Positions 3,809-17,135 are shown, numbered from the stretch's first letter. The stretch: 51,845 nucleotides of DNA from a virus (IMGVR_UViG_3300035670_013246:1-51845); one strand, 5' to 3'. Numbers and translations: made by a program. The notes: generated from the sequence alone by a model not told the origin.

Positions 3809-4179
3809 GGAGTCACCTGCTTATTGCTTGCGCGAAGAGCGCTAACCGCATCAAGCATCACGGCAATTTCTTCGTCAGTCAGCCTTTCAGTTCTGTAGGT
3901 AAGAGTATTGAAATCTGAGCGGTTCTTATCAGCGCGAATTTCCGCGCTATCCTTGCCAGTGATCGGGGTGATGGTCGGTCCGTAGCTAGCTCCGATCTCT
4001 CGCCCGTATTGCTTGTTGAATCGGCGCCCACGGTCACTGACGATGATCTGGGTAGCTGTAACGCGTTCAACCGTAGTGATGCTCTTGCGTCGACCAATAC
4101 CTTTCTCAGTGATCACCACGCCGGCTCCGGCCTTCAGCCCTTGGCGCCAGGCCTTGGCTTTCTCGAAATCTTCGCTCAC
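3805..4179 (-). CDS. Hypothetical phage protein
   Basis: 124-aa ORF with 4-bp overlaps to both neighbours in the leftward operon. Confidence 0.7.
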   Translation of the reverse strand: MSEDFEKAKAWRQGLKAGAGVVITEKGIGRRKSITTVERVTATQIIVSDRGRRFNKQYGREIGASYGPTITPITGKDSAEIRADKNRSDFNTLTYRTERLTDEEIAVMLDAVSALRASNKQVTP

Positions 4180-4442
4180 AGCTGATACCTCTCATCAATC
4201 CAGCGCCCAGGCGCCAGTGCGGGTGTAGGTTCGGGTTGTGTTTCGTGCGGGGAGAGCTGGCGCTGGTTGCCGGCCTGCAGCTGGCTGTCGGGAATGCAGC
4301 TGATGCCGCCTGGCGAGCTGAAGCCGTAGAGCCAACAGGTAGCGCCGCGCTCATCGTCATGGAATACGCGCACTCCATGGGGCAACGGATCTGCGCTGGC
4401 GCCAGTGGCCAGCAGCAGGAGACAGAGGACGAGGCGGGTCAT
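4176..4442 (-). CDS. Hypothetical exported protein
   Basis: Signal-peptide-like MTRLVLCLLLLATGASA and a Cys pair; coupled to neighbours. Confidence 0.7.
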   Translation of the reverse strand: MTRLVLCLLLLATGASADPLPHGVRVFHDDERGATCWLYGFSSPGGISCIPDSQLQAGNQRQLSPHETQPEPTPALAPGRWIDERYQL

Positions 4443-4627
4443 TCCTTCACCTTGATCGTCACGTCGTCATGAATCCACTCGATGTCGAGTAGGTCGTCTT
4501 CGGTGATCTGGTCTTCCCGGGTGTCGTTCATGCTCACCAGGTCCTGCACCTCATCGTCAGGTACGTTTTTCATGACCTTGCGGAAGTTCACGACTGCCTT
4601 GCCGGTCAGGATGATTGTTTTGCCCAC
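4439..4627 (-). CDS. Hypothetical acidic phage protein
   Basis: GTG start at 4627 (MGKTIILTGKAVV) preceded by AAGGA; stop overlaps the next start. Confidence 0.6.
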   Translation of the reverse strand: MGKTIILTGKAVVNFRKVMKNVPDDEVQDLVSMNDTREDQITEDDLLDIEWIHDDVTIKVKE

Positions 4628-4659
4628 GGCAGATCCTTGGCCGCCATATCGCGGCAGTG

Positions 4660-5117
4660 AATAGAGGGGAGAGGGGTTAGGAGCATTGGTGATGGCCAAT
4701 AGTCTGATTCAGATCACGAAACAGGCAGGTGGGGTTGCGAACCGCTTCGGTTTGGCTATGGTGGGTTGATGCATACAACTGAAGTCGAAGGAGGACGGCA
4801 TGAGAATTCGCGGTGATGTTTTTTGGTCTTGGGCTGACCCGACGCTTCACCATAGGACTCATGACGAAACACTCGACGATGGAACGTTCATAGATGTCCA
4901 AGTGCGACTGTCGCGCACGGGCAACACGCAGATGTTCCTCGGCGTTTATGCGGCGGGTGGAGCTCCCCTCCACGAAGAGGCGTTCGACTCTCGTCCAGGC
5001 GAGTCGATGACCAGGGCATTAGCGTGGGGCGTGGGGCGTGCTCGCCGAATCGCCACCGAGGGCCTGGCTGCAACGGACAAGCACGCGGCCTGCTCGAAAT
5101 AGAGGGGCGAGGGGTTA
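4660..5117 (+). repeat. 20-bp direct repeats AATAGAGGGG(A/C)GAGGGGTTA at 4660-4679 and 5098-5117
   Basis: 19/20 identical by inspection; a shorter variant lies at 2872-2886. Confidence 0.8.
4800..5102 (+). CDS. Hypothetical protein in an antisense cassette
   Basis: 100-aa ORF with strong AGGAGG RBS, opposite to the operon and between direct repeats. Confidence 0.75.
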   Translation: MRIRGDVFWSWADPTLHHRTHDETLDDGTFIDVQVRLSRTGNTQMFLGVYAAGGAPLHEEAFDSRPGESMTRALAWGVGRARRIATEGLAATDKHAACSK

Positions 5118-6060: not shown

Positions 6061-7953
6061 TCAGGCCGCCAGGCGCTGGTAGAGTTCGATGAGGTCGGAT
6101 GCGTTCGCCGCGACAAGGGCCCGGGCTTCGTCCTTGCAGACACTGTTGCCCAGCAGCTTCACCTGGTCAGTCTTGCTGATGGCTTTCCAGTGCAGCTGGC
6201 CGGTCACTTCATCGAGGAACAGGCCTCGGTCGATGATGTAGTCCGGTCGGAAGCCTTGGGCGCGTTTCAGCTCGTGCGGTTGCAGCATGCGCAGGGTAAT
6301 GTCGATCAGCACGTAGTCACCGACCATGACGATATCGGCGTGCTCGGTGAAGTGCTGCGGCAGGTATTTTCGGAGGAACGCCGCGCACTTGCGGGCACCG
6401 GCCAGTTGCTCATCTGTCAGCGTGTGGCTGTGCAACTGGACGACTTCGACCACAGCCATGCGATCCTTCGACGGGATCGTGTGGACCGGCTCACGAAGTG
6501 AGATCCCGTCCTTCTCGGCACCGTAGTACTTCACCATGTAGGCAGTGACCAGACGCTGATTTGAGCCTTTGCCCAGGACGGTCGAGAACGGATCGTCCGC
6601 TGCACGGCCGTCGCCCTTGTAGAAGCCGCCGTTGGCCTGCTCCAAGTGGGCGGATGCAACAGCGTGGTGACCGCTGTTTTGCGTGATGCAGCTGAGAGGG
6701 CCGTTTGCGGCAGCACCCACGCAGCCTTTGCGTAACGTTACCAGGGAGGCCGAAACCAGTGCCTGCTCGCCGCGATTGGCGCCTGTCACCGTCATGGCAG
6801 GGTCCGTGGCAGGGTAGCCTGATCGATCGCCATGGTGCGTCAGGTGTGTCAGATGCGCGCCGACCAACGCAAAGTGGCCTCCCTTGACTTGAGCAACTTG
6901 GGTTCGCAGTGGCTCAAGAGTGTCGAAAGTGCGCTGGGTCGACCCATTCGCATGCTCAGTAAGGCATCCCGCCATCGCCATCGTCGGCTGAACCAGGGCG
7001 TGATGGGTACCGCCACCGCTGATGGTCGAGGCTGGCTCACCGACGCTGTGCGTGCTGGTGTGCGACTTCGAGGTTCCGCGCAGCGGGACTATGAACGGGT
7101 CGTTGCAGGCCAGGGTGTGCCGCCACAGGCCTTTGGCGATACGGTTCATTGTGTTTTCGACCAGAGCGTCGTCCCGGAAGATCGTGCGGCCCTGCAGTTC
7201 CCAGTCGATGCATTCGGCGGCGGATCGCCAGGCTTTCTGACCCTTGCCCGGGTTCTTGTGGTGTGTCGGTGCCGGCCAGACGATGGGCTTGCCATCGCGC
7301 CGCGCGATGCCGTAAAGGCGCTTGCGGATCGTTGGCGCGCCCTGATCGGCCGCGACGCGCACCTGGTGCTCGAAGTTGTAGCGAAGGCCTCGCACCAGTG
7401 CTTCCTTGGGTACGTGGTCGCCGATTTCGGCCAAGATCTCAGGCAGGTCTGGGTGATCCTCTGGAATCCCCTTGCCCAGGACGTTCACGAACGCTTGGAA
7501 TGTCCGGCCCTTTTCGGCTTTGACCGGCTTGCCCTCATCGTCGAGCGGCCCCCAGTCGGCGAACTCTTCCACGTTTTCAAGGAAGATCAGTCGCGGACGA
7601 GTCTGGTATGCCCAGCGAATGATCACCCATGCGAGGCCGCGAATCTTGCGGTCACGGGGTTTCCCGCCCTTGGCCTTGCTGTGGTGCCGGCAGTCGGGCG
7701 AAGCCCACAAGATGCCGACCGGCTGCCCCTTCGTTGCCAGGATCGGATCGACTTCGAACACGTCTGCAACGTAGTGCTCGGTCTGCTGGTGGTTGGCGCG
7801 GTGCACAGCCAGGGCGATCGGGTTGTGGTTCACCGCCACATCCGGTTCGCGGTACGCCTCAGCGATTCCGCTGCTGGCGCCGCCTCCGCCGGCGAAGAGA
7901 TCGACGACCAGCTCCTTTTCGAAGGGCAGGGCGAGGGAGGTCATACAGGTCAT
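6061..7953 (-). CDS. DNA cytosine-5 methyltransferase (orphan, long variable region)
   Basis: Motif I DLFAGGGG, IV SPDC, VI ENVEEF, VIII TIRKRLY, X LLGNSV; AAGGA RBS before ATG 7953. Confidence 0.92.
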   Translation of the reverse strand: MTCMTSLALPFEKELVVDLFAGGGGASSGIAEAYREPDVAVNHNPIALAVHRANHQQTEHYVADVFEVDPILATKGQPVGILWASPDCRHHSKAKGGKPRDRKIRGLAWVIIRWAYQTRPRLIFLENVEEFADWGPLDDEGKPVKAEKGRTFQAFVNVLGKGIPEDHPDLPEILAEIGDHVPKEALVRGLRYNFEHQVRVAADQGAPTIRKRLYGIARRDGKPIVWPAPTHHKNPGKGQKAWRSAAECIDWELQGRTIFRDDALVENTMNRIAKGLWRHTLACNDPFIVPLRGTSKSHTSTHSVGEPASTISGGGTHHALVQPTMAMAGCLTEHANGSTQRTFDTLEPLRTQVAQVKGGHFALVGAHLTHLTHHGDRSGYPATDPAMTVTGANRGEQALVSASLVTLRKGCVGAAANGPLSCITQNSGHHAVASAHLEQANGGFYKGDGRAADDPFSTVLGKGSNQRLVTAYMVKYYGAEKDGISLREPVHTIPSKDRMAVVEVVQLHSHTLTDEQLAGARKCAAFLRKYLPQHFTEHADIVMVGDYVLIDITLRMLQPHELKRAQGFRPDYIIDRGLFLDEVTGQLHWKAISKTDQVKLLGNSVCKDEARALVAANASDLIELYQRLAA

Positions 7954-13226: not shown

Positions 13227-13553
13227 ATGTCCAAGCAGAAGAAGACGGCACCACAAGGACGCCAAGAGATGAGCGGGGTAGAGCGGCTCGGGCTGCGGAT
13301 TTCGTCGATGATCAATCACCCCATTGCACAGTCTCAGCGGTGGGTGACAATCCATCGCCTGGACACGGATGGAGACATGGAGTGGGAGGAGGTGATGGGG
13401 CTGTTAACCGAAACGCCAGAGCTAGACCTGACTTTCAACGACGACGAGAGCGTGACGGTTCGGTGGGAGCCGCAGAGCGCCGAGGATCGCGACGACCTGG
13501 TCGTGGAGAAGGACTGGGAGGAGGAGGTGGTGGAGGAAGAGGCGCCTTTCTGA
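13227..13553 (+). CDS. DUF1654-family protein
   Basis: ERLGLRISSMINHPIAQ.QRWVTIHRLDTDGD.EWEEV pattern; AAGGAG RBS. Confidence 0.75.
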   Translation: MSKQKKTAPQGRQEMSGVERLGLRISSMINHPIAQSQRWVTIHRLDTDGDMEWEEVMGLLTETPELDLTFNDDESVTVRWEPQSAEDRDDLVVEKDWEEEVVEEEAPF

Positions 13554-13778: not shown

Positions 13779-13961
13779 ATGCTGGAGATAGCTATGGCAC
13801 ACACTAAACCAGGGGCAATTCGTCCAAACGCGAAAAATGGAAACGTGAGCGCTGTGGTCAGTAGAAGAAGCTATTCTGCCCACACGAAGCAGGTTAACAA
13901 CGCGTTCTTGATTATATTTGCGCAATACGAACGTGCCTTTGAAGAATTGGCGAAAGTTTGA
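13779..13961 (+). CDS. Putative Doc antitoxin peptide (alternative start 13794)
   Basis: Small ORF 1 bp upstream of doc. Its C-terminus QYERAFEELAKV resembles the neutralising tail of Doc-associated antitoxins. Both ATGs have GGAG RBSs. Confidence 0.7.
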   Translation: MLEIAMAHTKPGAIRPNAKNGNVSAVVSRRSYSAHTKQVNNAFLIIFAQYERAFEELAKV

Positions 13962-13962
13962 T

Positions 13963-14448
13963 ATGGCTGGATCTGCAAATGTAATTCAATGGCTAAGTGA
14001 ATCAGACATAGCGTCGCTCAATCATAATTTGATTGATGCTCAAACTCCGATGGAGCCAGTGGGGGTCCTGAATCTTTCAGGGCTCTCATCCGCTCAATAT
14101 CGAGCTATTCAGTATCAAAATTACGCTGGCGTCAGCGATATTTTTGTACTGGGTGCAGTTTTTTCCGAAGCGTTGGTCCAAAATCATCCATTTTTTAATG
14201 CTAATAAAAGAACTGCGGCTGCGGCCGTGATGGTGTTTTTGCTAATTAATGGAGTGATGCTTAAGGCGCCATGGGAGCAAGTGGTTGAGATGTTTGAGGG
14301 GCTTGCCAAGCACACTTTTGACATTGATGATTTCTCCTGCTGGCTTAAGCACTGGAGTGTAAAGTTTGACGTTTCTCAGCTCGACGAGCTGGCTGCTGAC
14401 GCGTATTACAATAACGAAACACTCAAATCTAAATTTTCAAAGCTCTAA
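13963..14448 (+). CDS. Doc/Fic-family toxin 1
   Basis: NHPFFNANKRTA Doc-type motif followed by FLLING. Confidence 0.9.
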   Translation: MAGSANVIQWLSESDIASLNHNLIDAQTPMEPVGVLNLSGLSSAQYRAIQYQNYAGVSDIFVLGAVFSEALVQNHPFFNANKRTAAAAVMVFLLINGVMLKAPWEQVVEMFEGLAKHTFDIDDFSCWLKHWSVKFDVSQLDELAADAYYNNETLKSKFSKL

Positions 14449-14466: not shown

Positions 14467-15195
14467 ATGGACAGGGAGTTGGTAGAAAGTATCCACCTGT
14501 ATTTGGTTGATCACTTTGCGGATTCGGATGACCCTTTAGAACCCTCTGGAGTTAAGGACTACAATCTGCTTGAATCAGCATGCGCCAGACCTTTTCAAAC
14601 AGTTCATGGCAGAGATGCCTATGAAACGGAGTACGAAAAGGGGGCCGCGATCTTCCATGGGATCATCGCAAATCATTGCTTTCATAACGGTAATAAGCGA
14701 ACCGCTCTCCTGAGCGCGCTATATTATCTAGGTGAAAACAATATTTGGGTTGATCGCTGCAATGATGACGATATGTTTGAGTTTACTCGGCAAATTGCAG
14801 CTCATGAAATAGCAGAAAAGCGTGAAGATGAAATTTCAGTAATAGTCGACTGGCTTCTTCGGAATTCACGAAAAATCATGAAATCCGACAAGTATCTTTC
14901 TTTCAGTGATTTGCGAGAAAAACTGGGAAGGTTTGACTTTGAGCTCTCGGAGCGGAACGGATTAGTGGATGTCCTCAAGGAAGGGGAAATCGTTACAAGG
15001 ATTTTAAAGAAGGGTAAACACGGACGGGAAGAATATGATCCTGTCTATGTGGCAGATCTCCGGAAGCGTCTTCAGTTGACCGTTGACTATGGTGTTGACT
15101 CTGGCCGATTCTATGGGCAAAAGGGTGTTTCAGAAGAGCTGAATGAATTTATGCACATCCGCGGCGCAGTTTTTCGGAGACTGGCAACGGCCTGA
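14467..15195 (+). CDS. Doc/Fic-family protein 2 with ~105-aa C-terminal extension
   Basis: GVKDYNLLESACARP and NHCFHNGNKRTA; GAGGGG RBS. Confidence 0.9.
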   Translation: MDRELVESIHLYLVDHFADSDDPLEPSGVKDYNLLESACARPFQTVHGRDAYETEYEKGAAIFHGIIANHCFHNGNKRTALLSALYYLGENNIWVDRCNDDDMFEFTRQIAAHEIAEKREDEISVIVDWLLRNSRKIMKSDKYLSFSDLREKLGRFDFELSERNGLVDVLKEGEIVTRILKKGKHGREEYDPVYVADLRKRLQLTVDYGVDSGRFYGQKGVSEELNEFMHIRGAVFRRLATA

Positions 15196-15999: not shown

Positions 16000-16806
16000 T
16001 CACACCAGGTGCGCATTCCACACCAGCAGCACTCGGGCCTGGATGTAGGTCTCATCAACTCGGATGTCCTCAGGCGGATGATTGGTGTTGTCCGAAATCA
16101 TCTTGAAGTGGTTGCGGCCCTTCTTCTGCAGACGCTTGATGTACTGATGACCCTGATGGGAGAAGTAGTAGATCCCGTCGCCCACGAACTCACGGATGCT
16201 GATGTCAACGACCAACGGGTCGCGGCTCTTGATGGTCGGGGCCATGGACTGACCGACACCCGTAATGAGCTTCAGGTGGAAGTGCTCTTTGAACTCGACC
16301 CCCATCTCTCGCAGGTGAGTAGGGCTGACGCGGATGTCCTGCAGCATTTCAGGGAAGTCGTGAGCTACTTCGCCATCGCCCATTGCTCCGCGCACGTCGT
16401 AGTGAGCAATCCACACCTCATCGCCCACGAGGCCTGGGCGAACGAAGTTAGCCGCGACGGCACTGCTGGCGCTCGGCTCCTCAGCCGCAGCAAGGAGGCG
16501 CTGACGGGCCTCTTCCGGAATGCCTTTGCCGCTCTTTGCGAGCATCTGCCTGACAAGATCAGTCGTACTCCGGGCTGGCGCCGAAACCTCGGTCACTGCC
16601 GCAGAGTTCAGGAGTAGCTCGGATTGGTCGACTCCAAGGGCAGCTGCCATAGCGGCAATATCCGCCAGCGTTGGCTCTCGCGTACCGGCTTCATAGTTTC
16701 CGACGCGTGACTGCGATTTCCAGCCGCAAGCATCTGCCAGCTGGGCCTGGGACATTCCCGTCGCTTTTCTCAAGCGCTTAATGCGCTGGCTCAGTGATTC
16801 ATTCAT
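16000..16806 (-). CDS. CI-like repressor (XRE HTH + S24 autopeptidase)
   Basis: N-terminal HTH SQAQLADACGWKSQSRVGNYEAGTREP; catalytic GQSM and IKRL. Confidence 0.93.
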   Translation of the reverse strand: MNESLSQRIKRLRKATGMSQAQLADACGWKSQSRVGNYEAGTREPTLADIAAMAAALGVDQSELLLNSAAVTEVSAPARSTTDLVRQMLAKSGKGIPEEARQRLLAAAEEPSASSAVAANFVRPGLVGDEVWIAHYDVRGAMGDGEVAHDFPEMLQDIRVSPTHLREMGVEFKEHFHLKLITGVGQSMAPTIKSRDPLVVDISIREFVGDGIYYFSHQGHQYIKRLQKKGRNHFKMISDNTNHPPEDIRVDETYIQARVLLVWNAHLV

Positions 16807-16884: not shown

Positions 16885-16910
16885 GAGTGCTAGTCATTGA
16901 GGAACCCCGA

Positions 16911-17135
16911 ATGAACAACGTTCGCAAGATCCGGGTAGCTGCGGGGATTAGCCAAGCCCGGCTATGCCGGGAGCTCCGCTGGAACCAGTCGCGTCTGGCC
17001 AACTACGAGGCCGGGCGACGGTGTGTCGGCCTGGATGCGGCCCGGAAGATTGTCACTGCGCTGAACGGGCTAGGCGCCGAGTGCAGCCTTGACGATGTCT
17101 TCCCGCCAACGGCTCGCGACCCAGAAGCAGCCTGA
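16911..17135 (+). CDS. Cro-like HTH regulator
   Basis: ISQARLCRELRWNQSRLANYEAGRR; divergent from cI; GAGGA RBS. Confidence 0.88.
   Translation: MNNVRKIRVAAGISQARLCRELRWNQSRLANYEAGRRCVGLDAARKIVTALNGLGAECSLDDVFPPTARDPEAA

Follow-up and report, generated by a model that had tools for sequence, protein, structure and literature searches.

The 242-residue protein encoded at positions 14467-15195 (+ strand, stop codon counted) of IMGVR_UViG_3300035670_013246:1-51845, a record of 51,845 bases from a temperate Pseudomonas-type phage (we use "the window" for this whole stretch), appears to carry in one chain a Doc kinase domain, a HicA-like domain and a C-terminal tail resembling the neutralising C-terminus of the antitoxin Phd (Phd-C). 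The prevailing view is that a Doc toxin depends on a labile antitoxin of the Phd type made as a protein of its own. On balance we favor reading this gene, which we designate Doc#2, as a single-chain Doc toxin-antitoxin that is restrained by its own Phd-C-type tail. Computation yielded the three-part anatomy, homology of both C-terminal parts to known domains, a predicted contact between tail and Doc domain, and no conserved partner gene. The Doc#2 open reading frame (ORF) had been flagged in an earlier reading made from the sequence alone (below, the sequence-only reading), which placed a Doc domain at about residues 1-135 and quoted several of its segments; the domain, the segments and their coordinates were all found correct by Pfam, by TIGR01550 and by a check of the numbering.

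The Doc domain and its catalytic motif

The Doc (Fic-fold) kinase domain occupies residues 1-135 (14467-14871, + strand). Pfam Fic/DOC (PF02661) matched residues 2-88 (E-value 3.2e-13, 50.8 bits against a cut-off of 24) and TIGR01550 DOC_P1 matched residues 13-117 (1.1e-12, 48.2 bits against a cut-off of 38.65). The catalytic motif H70-C-F-H-N-G-N-K-R78 (14674-14700, + strand) has the form HxFx(D/N)(A/G)NKR, as worded in PMC13034048 (this and the other papers cited by PMC number are drawn on here as excerpts). In an alignment of 30 sequences from close relatives N74, G75, N76, K77 and R78 were invariant and H70 was conserved in at least 90%, and the motif was also kept in an alignment of 40 distant long forms described below. 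The nearest solved sequence was the Doc of E. faecalis (9vzc_A, E-value 2.3e-11), and an AlphaFold2 model of Doc#2 built on the 30-sequence alignment (mean predicted local distance difference test (pLDDT) 84.8, predicted TM-score (pTM) 0.66) had as its top PDB fold matches in Foldseek P1 Doc 3k33_A (prob 1.00) and 3dd7_A, both with TMt 0.79. From sequence and model, residues 1-135 are likely to be an intact Doc kinase. Doc phosphorylates the elongation factor EF-Tu, upon which translation stops; Doc#2 may be toxic, with EF-Tu as its target.

The tail resembles the ends of Doc antitoxins

The tail spans residues 221-242 (15127-15192, + strand) and is predicted by AlphaFold2 to form two helices, 221-231 and 233-241, with a break at G233 and the end RRLATA. 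The C-terminus of Doc#2 reads FMHIRGAVFRRLATA, and that of an adjoining 60-residue ORF reads IFAQYERAFEELAKV. The sequence-only reading had seen a parallel between these two ends, and this parallel holds; the hydrophobic hot-spot spacing is the same in both. Among relatives of Doc#2 the C-terminus RLA[KR][ILVT]-COOH, or a form differing from it by one letter, was found at 78 of 80 loci, the two exceptions being one frameshifted copy and one neighboring gene, with the true family member at that locus having the motif. Doc#2 itself ends LATA, with T at the place of the family K/R. In the Brachymonas copy (L021, ~4001-4900) the Doc frame ends differently and the tail, ...MKRLAKT, lies in another frame, which suggests a frameshift or sequencing error. 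As a background set we took the 5892 stop-to-stop frames of at least 60 residues in the related loci and the window; 88 of these ended in LA[KR] or LA[KR][ILVMTA], and just 7 of the 88 were neither family members nor directly upstream of a Doc gene. The C-terminal likeness therefore exceeds chance.

To set this motif beside ordinary Doc genes, TIGR01550 was run on 151 genomes from the order of one related genome and 20 Doc loci were read upstream, four of which had no ORF under the filters used. Of the other 16 Doc genes, nine were preceded by an ORF ending ...Y(K/R)xxL(R/K)ELAK, four by ORFs ending DYL(K/R)DK and one by the Pseudomonas 60-residue peptide, while two had no upstream ORF. Eight of the nine ELAK ORFs were scanned with Pfam, giving matches to MazE/AbrB (4), ribbon-helix-helix (1) and Phd/YefM (1) at E-values of 0.01 or less; only two of these six matches pass the Pfam cut-off, and the remaining two ORFs were uninformative. 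Differing antitoxin-type heads thus share one common end, which is modularity as described for Phd-C in PMC10440598. The four DYL(K/R)DK loci (L089, L093, L098 and L100) make up a second class of Doc-adjacent antitoxin, ending ...LDYL(K/R)DK instead of ...ELAK; of the two that were scanned, L100 had a weak Phd/YefM match (E-value 0.0026, below the cut-off) and L089 had none. The neutralising end may accordingly come in at least two sequence types.

An hhalign comparison of the last 30 residues of the nine ELAK antitoxins with 60 tails from the Doc#2 family aligned them end-to-end (Prob 91.5, E-value 8.4e-7), so that profile comparison shows homology between the tail and the ends of Doc antitoxins that are encoded separately. 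Such C-termini can be enough for neutralization: a SUMO-Phd-C fusion neutralises Doc, with Phd-C described as modular (PMC10440598), and a Salmonella peptide of Phd residues 52-73 is sufficient to neutralise Doc (PMC9207808). The latter paper gives the Phd hot spots as F56, I59, M60, H63, L67 and L70, with a kink at G64 and a total length of 73. At an offset of +169 these hot spots fall on L225, F228, M229, R232, F236 and L239 of Doc#2, the kink falls on G233 and the end on residue 242. A Yersinia V antigen helix picked up when the 60-tail profile was searched against PDB sequences was set aside as a chance match. A word-based search for free-standing short proteins resembling residues 138-242, i.e., split forms, found none; a 95-residue representative (P0268) begins within the first helix and looks truncated. 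C-terminal motifs of the tail type might double as ClpXP protease tags.

Predicted docking of the tail and covariation

A two-chain model was made from residues 1-135 and residues 203-242, both with the 30-sequence alignment. Its interface score ipSAE was 0.83, 0.83 and 0.80 in three runs against 0.02 for the best control, the mark applied being one that 58 of 80 solved complexes and 2 of 110 mismatched pairs reach. The runs shared at least 94% of their contacts, with a partner pLDDT of at least 63. On the Doc side the predicted interface comprises residues 5-22 (helix 1), G75, K77, R78, 81-90 (the helix past the catalytic loop) and 96-108, and on the tail side residues 221-242, including all six hot-spot equivalents. 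Docking of the tail in the Doc groove, which the sequence-only reading had put forward as a check, was thus reproduced in the model, with the tail touching G75, K77 and R78. We think it highly probable, going by these models, that the tail contacts the Doc groove.

Covariation, which does not depend on structure predictors, was analyzed by mean-field direct coupling analysis (DCA) of 325 family sequences (effective number, Meff, 250). Among the top 25 Doc-by-tail pairs nine fell within the sets of residues that the model places at the interface (3.8 expected; binomial p 0.0085), and the 25 contact pairs listed from the model outscored the remaining pairs (Mann-Whitney p 8e-4); four control segments showed no enrichment in DCA. 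The covariation modestly agrees with a contact between tail and Doc domain.

The middle domain and the linker

Between kinase and tail lies a domain of residues 138-206 (14878-15084, + strand) with an alpha-beta-beta-beta-alpha arrangement that is HicA-like, or like a double-stranded RNA-binding domain (dsRBD). The sequence-only reading had described here a helix/three-strand/helix pattern of HicA type lacking the GSH motif, quoting the stretch LSFSDLREK...LRKRLQL, which is residues 144-204. Secondary structure, profile comparison and fold search all bore this out. AlphaFold2 placed helices at 146-154 and 192-201 and strands at 158-163, 166-171 and 174-180, and mean-field DCA recovered sheet and helix pairs of this domain (168-178, 158-169 and 149-198). 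When 62 middle domains of the family were scanned singly, 16 matched PF07927 HicA_toxin (best E-value 2.4e-5) and no other Pfam family was matched by more than two. With a HicA profile built from six HicA proteins of three genomes, hhalign aligned the 62 middle domains over 62 columns, the whole HicA length (Prob 93.5, E-value 2.2e-7).

A model of the isolated domain (pLDDT 72.8) returned 5yrz_B first in Foldseek (prob 0.99, TMt 0.71, root-mean-square deviation 2.4), followed by 6hpb_A (TMt 0.69), 6g26_E (0.67), 1whz (0.59) and 4p78_C (0.57). We take 5yrz to be a HicBA complex and 1whz a HicA-type protein (they are listed as a toxin-antitoxin complex and a hypothetical protein, respectively). 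HicA chains, the best matches at TMt 0.57-0.71, were the sole small full-length fold matches for the domain, and the Foldseek E-values were weak (0.098-1.2). Profile and model together suggest that the middle domain is HicA-derived. In the profile alignment the G-S-H of HicA falls on G165-L166-V167, where the family consensus is G-N-x, and the catalytic His is missing in Doc#2; because this residue is lost, the domain should not be an RNase. Nothing HicB-like was seen among the Pfam-scanned neighbors in the window and the related loci, a scan that included no dedicated HicB model search.

The linker to the tail, residues 207-220 (15085-15126, + strand), holds the motif G209-x-D211-S212-x-x-F215-Y216, whose residues are invariant or conserved in at least 90% in both the close-relative and the 60-tail alignments, making it the most conserved stretch of the C-terminal half across phyla. 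Model confidence is low for this segment, and it does not belong to the part of the predicted interface that scored as confident; the DCA pair 135-211 is within the top 30. One idea is that the linker serves as an autophosphorylation site.

Relatives and their distribution

The whole chain of Doc#2 matched phrog_18015, of unknown function, over residues 6-240 (E-value 1.4e-67). A search of the ESM Atlas gave no usable match. A word-based search identified 148 homologs, nearly all of 241-249 residues, from Pseudomonas, Klebsiella, E. coli, Aeromonas, Neisseria, Actinobacillus, Desulfovibrio and a Firmicute; those with names were labeled solely 'death-on-curing family toxin', and at present databases call these genes 'Doc family toxin' or 'unknown function'. 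When a single genome from each species was scanned, 259 relatives came up, and 80 loci were kept, including some from Actinobacteria, Chloroflexi, Planctomycetes and Acidobacteria with 30-38% identity over residues 6-240. An exhaustive search of representatives found 3183 matches with E-values of 0.001 or less (plain Docs included) and 638 at 1e-10 or less; by hand count, about 120 of 150 among the matches listed reach beyond residue 214. Judged by these searches, the architecture of Doc, HicA-like domain and tail is ancient and widespread.

Many relatives are longer, at ~400 residues (P0127-P0220; L023-L073), and have an extra N-terminal region before the unit of Doc, HicA-like domain and tail; they occur in Actinobacteria, Chloroflexi, Planctomycetes and others. 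The 40 long forms that we aligned share a conserved N-terminal motif of ~50 residues starting TVxxLAxEAxxDxDExLxxLWDxG, and a second similar stretch in this region may be a repeat. The ~50-residue motif has a likeness to IF2_N, although Pfam IF2_N gave just one weak match (E-value 0.008, below the cut-off) in one of ten long forms scanned, and one relative (P0246) has an S1 RNA-binding domain instead. Three short proteins (P0172, P0173 and P0130; 164-193 residues) consist of Doc, a short acidic linker and a tail whose last residues are ...ELAKT or ...LAQT. They lack the HicA-like domain, which indicates that the tail is tied to Doc and not to that domain.

Clustering of the neighbors within 1.2 kb at 81 loci revealed no recurring partner, the largest cluster covering four loci and being another Doc; flanks of the 22 short-form loci were heterogeneous. 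Doc#2 likewise has no separate antitoxin gene immediately 5' of it, the gene at that place being another Doc. That the kinase motif is intact and conserved while no antidote gene is conserved beside it speaks for control residing in the protein itself.

Individual copies stand in varied settings. In one Actinobacillus genome (L020:2486-6290) a family member is flanked by guaB (IMP dehydrogenase) on one side and guaA (GMP synthase) on the other, each 15-16 nt away; at two loci (L011 and L012) one precedes a glutamine amidotransferase (GATase) gene, and at another (L008) one is solitary, with a transposase-like ORF close by. Among filamentous phages (Tubulavirales), three records from Vibrio cyclitrophicus contain a copy of 53% identity; in one of them (L081, PQ189380.1, 6616-7348) it is annotated as two coding sequences, 6616-6723 and 6746-7348, and its first ~32 residues may lie in another frame or be genuinely different. 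A Microbacteriaceae locus (L077:3521-5613) has in tandem a 417-residue long form and a second copy with a HicA-like region and the tail ...LDRLAEV.

The three-gene cassette and its surroundings

Doc#2 is the last of three close-set ORFs on a single strand (gaps of 1 and 18 nt), which form a + strand cassette bordered in the window by the leftward early genes on one side and by the cI region on the other. The cassette has a G+C content of 44.9%, against 60.4% for the window overall. The first gene is the 60-residue ORF (13779-13961, + strand), whose stop lies 1 nt ahead of the ATG of the second, Doc#1 (13963-14448, + strand), an ordinary Doc toxin gene of 161 residues from ATG 13963 with the motif HPFFNANKR (TIGR01550 E-value 2.1e-24; Pfam Fic 2.2e-8; phrog_577 Doc-like toxin 7.3e-33). 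Directly 5' of Doc#2, which begins 18 nt past the Doc#1 stop, is the purine-rich GAGGGGAAG. The same three-gene cassette is present in Pseudomonas putida (L001/L088) and probably on two further contigs too; Doc#2 homologs outside those cassette copies stand alone. A scan for promoters and terminators gave nothing over shuffled expectation, and a search of the cassette DNA against a phage collection gave no match.

For the 60-residue ORF we found eight homologs of 55-61 residues, in which the N-terminal half is variable and the C-terminal half, ending ...FAQYERAFEELAKV, is nearly invariant. Residues 33-60 matched phrog_2208; there was no Pfam match, and so no Pfam DNA-binding domain, and no PDB match. 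Equivalents of the Phd hot spots are F43, I46, F47, Y50, F54 and L57, with the end at residue 60. From its sequence the ORF looks like a minimal antitoxin, with little beyond a Phd-C-type helix, and it is a candidate antitoxin for Doc#1.

Beyond the cassette the window encodes a cI-like repressor with helix-turn-helix (HTH) and peptidase S24 domains (16000-16806, - strand), a Cro-like HTH protein (16887-17135, + strand) and further phage regulatory and replication genes, namely a replication O protein, a DnaC/IstB-like ATPase and a single-stranded DNA-binding protein (SSB). Just 5' of the low-GC cassette is a DUF1654 protein (13227-13553, + strand; PF07867 E-value 1.1e-24; phrog_2707).

A proposed mechanism and the alternatives to it

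Inhibition by the tail, its release and a biological role are what we infer for Doc#2. The tail would sit in the Doc groove beside the catalytic loop, and we propose that the kinase is thereby held off without a partner gene. The degenerate HicA domain would join kinase and tail, and would most likely be a regulatory or targeting module whose ligand is RNA, the ribosome or a foreign factor. Relatives repeatedly have accessory domains linked to RNA or translation, which may point to RNA or the ribosome. Displacement or degradation of the tail would free the kinase, and in this way Doc#2 might give the prophage a module for abortive infection or addiction. The suggestion of the sequence-only reading that the middle domain senses a phage protein or RNA and so releases the tail, as in CapRel, is speculative. 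More tentatively, and with greater doubt than we attach to the single-chain reading of Doc#2 itself, Doc#2 could be the founding example of a large undescribed class of single-chain Doc toxin-antitoxins, reaching from Proteobacteria to Actinobacteria and Chloroflexi and into phages, in which a dead HicA domain (or an S1- or IF2_N-like one) acts as a switch for RNA, the ribosome or a phage factor, pulling the tail and so leading to EF-Tu phosphorylation and abortive infection. If so, CapRel and the class III Fic proteins would have a counterpart among Doc proteins.

Several results weigh against self-restraint by the tail. Its pLDDT was modest, at 58-78 in the full model and 63-65 in the complex model. 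The 60-tail profile found no Phd chain among PDB sequences at E-values up to 10, and hhalign of the 60-residue peptide family against the tails was weak (E-value 0.013, Prob 3.4). Because a custom alignment was used, the calibration of the complex score is only rough, and because Phd-Doc structures have already been solved, the score may reflect memory of them; such likeness to Phd-Doc structures is, on the other hand, the very claim made here. The covariation between Doc and tail is modest as well, with a top inter-segment score of 1.4 against 3.4 within domains and statistics that ignore phylogeny. As to a trigger or sensing role, PADLOC defense models gave only a partial match, of the Fic domain (residues 33-129) to the C-terminal part of candidate PDC-S23 models.

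The alternative that survives best, which we consider unlikely, is that the tail is a permanent structural complement, which completes the Doc fold to stabilise it, and Doc#2 a constitutively active regulatory kinase whose narrow, non-lethal substrate is chosen by the HicA-like (or S1- or IF2_N-like) domain. PMC13034048 reports that in the E. faecalis Phd-Doc complex the catalytic motif stays exposed with the antitoxin helix bound, and ascribes neutralization to dimerisation, so that groove occupancy need not equal active-site occlusion; this counts for the alternative and against restraint by the tail. The copies within housekeeping gene runs (between guaB and guaA, or before GATase) fit a regulatory kinase, as do the recurring RNA- and translation-linked domains, i.e., the HicA-like domain, the S1 domain, the weak IF2_N match and the ~50-residue motif of the long forms. 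However, the tail is homologous to segments known to neutralise Doc, and the family is found on mobile elements, such as the low-GC cassette, which has the look of a prophage moron, the Vibrio filamentous phages and the site with a transposase-like ORF.

It is distinctly less probable that the tail acts in trans, inserting either into the groove of a second copy, so that the off state is a dimer or oligomer joined head-to-tail, or into Doc#1, of which Doc#2 would then be a second regulator. The sequence-only reading had suggested that the tail may complete the Doc fold in cis as Phd does in trans: homology, predicted groove docking and covariation all favor completion by the tail, and the cis part is left unseparated from trans by the models, since the complex was modeled as two separate chains and fits both equally well, a further point against our preferred reading. 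Regulation by oligomeric state has been reported for E. faecalis Doc (PMC13034048), and tandem Doc genes exist at 4 of 81 loci. Against action in trans, 77 of the 81 loci have no adjacent second Doc gene, Doc#1 already has its own upstream peptide, and the short acidic linker between Doc and tail in P0172 suggests reach in cis.

Only a small chance falls to the idea that the 60-residue peptide is the real antitoxin for both Docs and the Doc#2 tail a vestige. The tight spacing of the three genes on one strand and the C-terminal motif of the peptide would suit it, but retention of the tail motif at 78 of 80 loci across many phyla is evident constraint, and the peptide family is narrow and absent beside most family members. 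That the HicA-like pattern and the shared C-terminal letters arose by chance is already very unlikely and the weakest reading of all: the motifs are short, the Foldseek E-values weak and the window copy of the middle domain without any Pfam match, HicA_toxin included, yet the two profile-profile E-values, the HicA_toxin matches in 16 of 62 middle domains against at most two for other families, and a C-terminal motif background of 7 in 5892 frames speak otherwise.

Comparison with known systems

Among the known systems closest to Doc#2 is Phd-Doc (P1, Salmonella and E. faecalis 9VZC), which has in common with it a Doc kinase domain with HxFx(D/N)(A/G)NKR, the hydrophobic hot-spot spacing of Phd and the Doc#2 tail and, as predicted by the model for Doc#2, a bent two-helix C-terminal element in the Doc groove beside helix 4. 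It differs in that the neutraliser of Doc#2 is on the toxin chain, whereas Phd is a separate labile protein, and in that the toxin and neutraliser parts of Doc#2 have a HicA-like domain set between them. Since Doc#2 is without a DNA-binding antitoxin domain, the usual autoregulation by an antitoxin-repressor is absent. The NetFlax antitoxin PanA-Phd-C, paired with Doc, combines the same linear neutraliser with another globular accessory domain, which is proposed to be sensory (PMC10440598, in the part drawn on here); there the element is on a separate antitoxin with Panacea, while in Doc#2 it is on the toxin with a HicA-like domain.

Compared with HicA of HicAB, the middle domain of Doc#2 shares the fold and a profile-level sequence relation over the whole HicA length. 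In contrast to HicA, it is internal to a larger protein, lacks the catalytic His and has no HicB-like neighbor that we could see; being internal and without this His, it would not be an RNase toxin in Doc#2. A role for it in control of the kinase would be the first for a catalytically dead HicA domain.

In class II and III Fic proteins (e.g., NmFic) an enzyme of Fic fold is held back by a helix belonging to the same polypeptide, as cited in the excerpt of PMC3667792. NmFic and E. faecalis Fic were among the fold matches of Doc#2, and a regular-expression search of its 242 residues found no occurrence of the class II/III inhibitory motif [S/T]xxxE[G/N]. Doc#2 differs from them in being of the Doc (kinase) type with a tail of the antitoxin Phd-C type, and restraint by that tail would mean that intramolecular inhibition, familiar from AMPylating Fic enzymes, applies to Doc kinases as well.

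A literature search of full texts, with most subscription journals and supplements outside its scope, turned up neither a Doc-HicA fusion nor a Doc neutralised by its own chain, and the excerpts of PMC2701414, PMC4454073 and PMC9122126 contain no Doc-HicA fusion or self-inhibited Doc. Fused toxin-antitoxin defense proteins such as CapRel, in available excerpts a prophage-borne protein, follow the same logic, the toxin domain and a C-terminal part that neutralises it being one polypeptide. The toxSAS domain of CapRel is unrelated to Doc, and for CapRel the trigger and release have been demonstrated, whereas release is only proposed for Doc#2. If Doc#2 behaves as we propose, Doc would become the second class of toxin among the fused toxin-antitoxin immune sensors that CapRel typifies.

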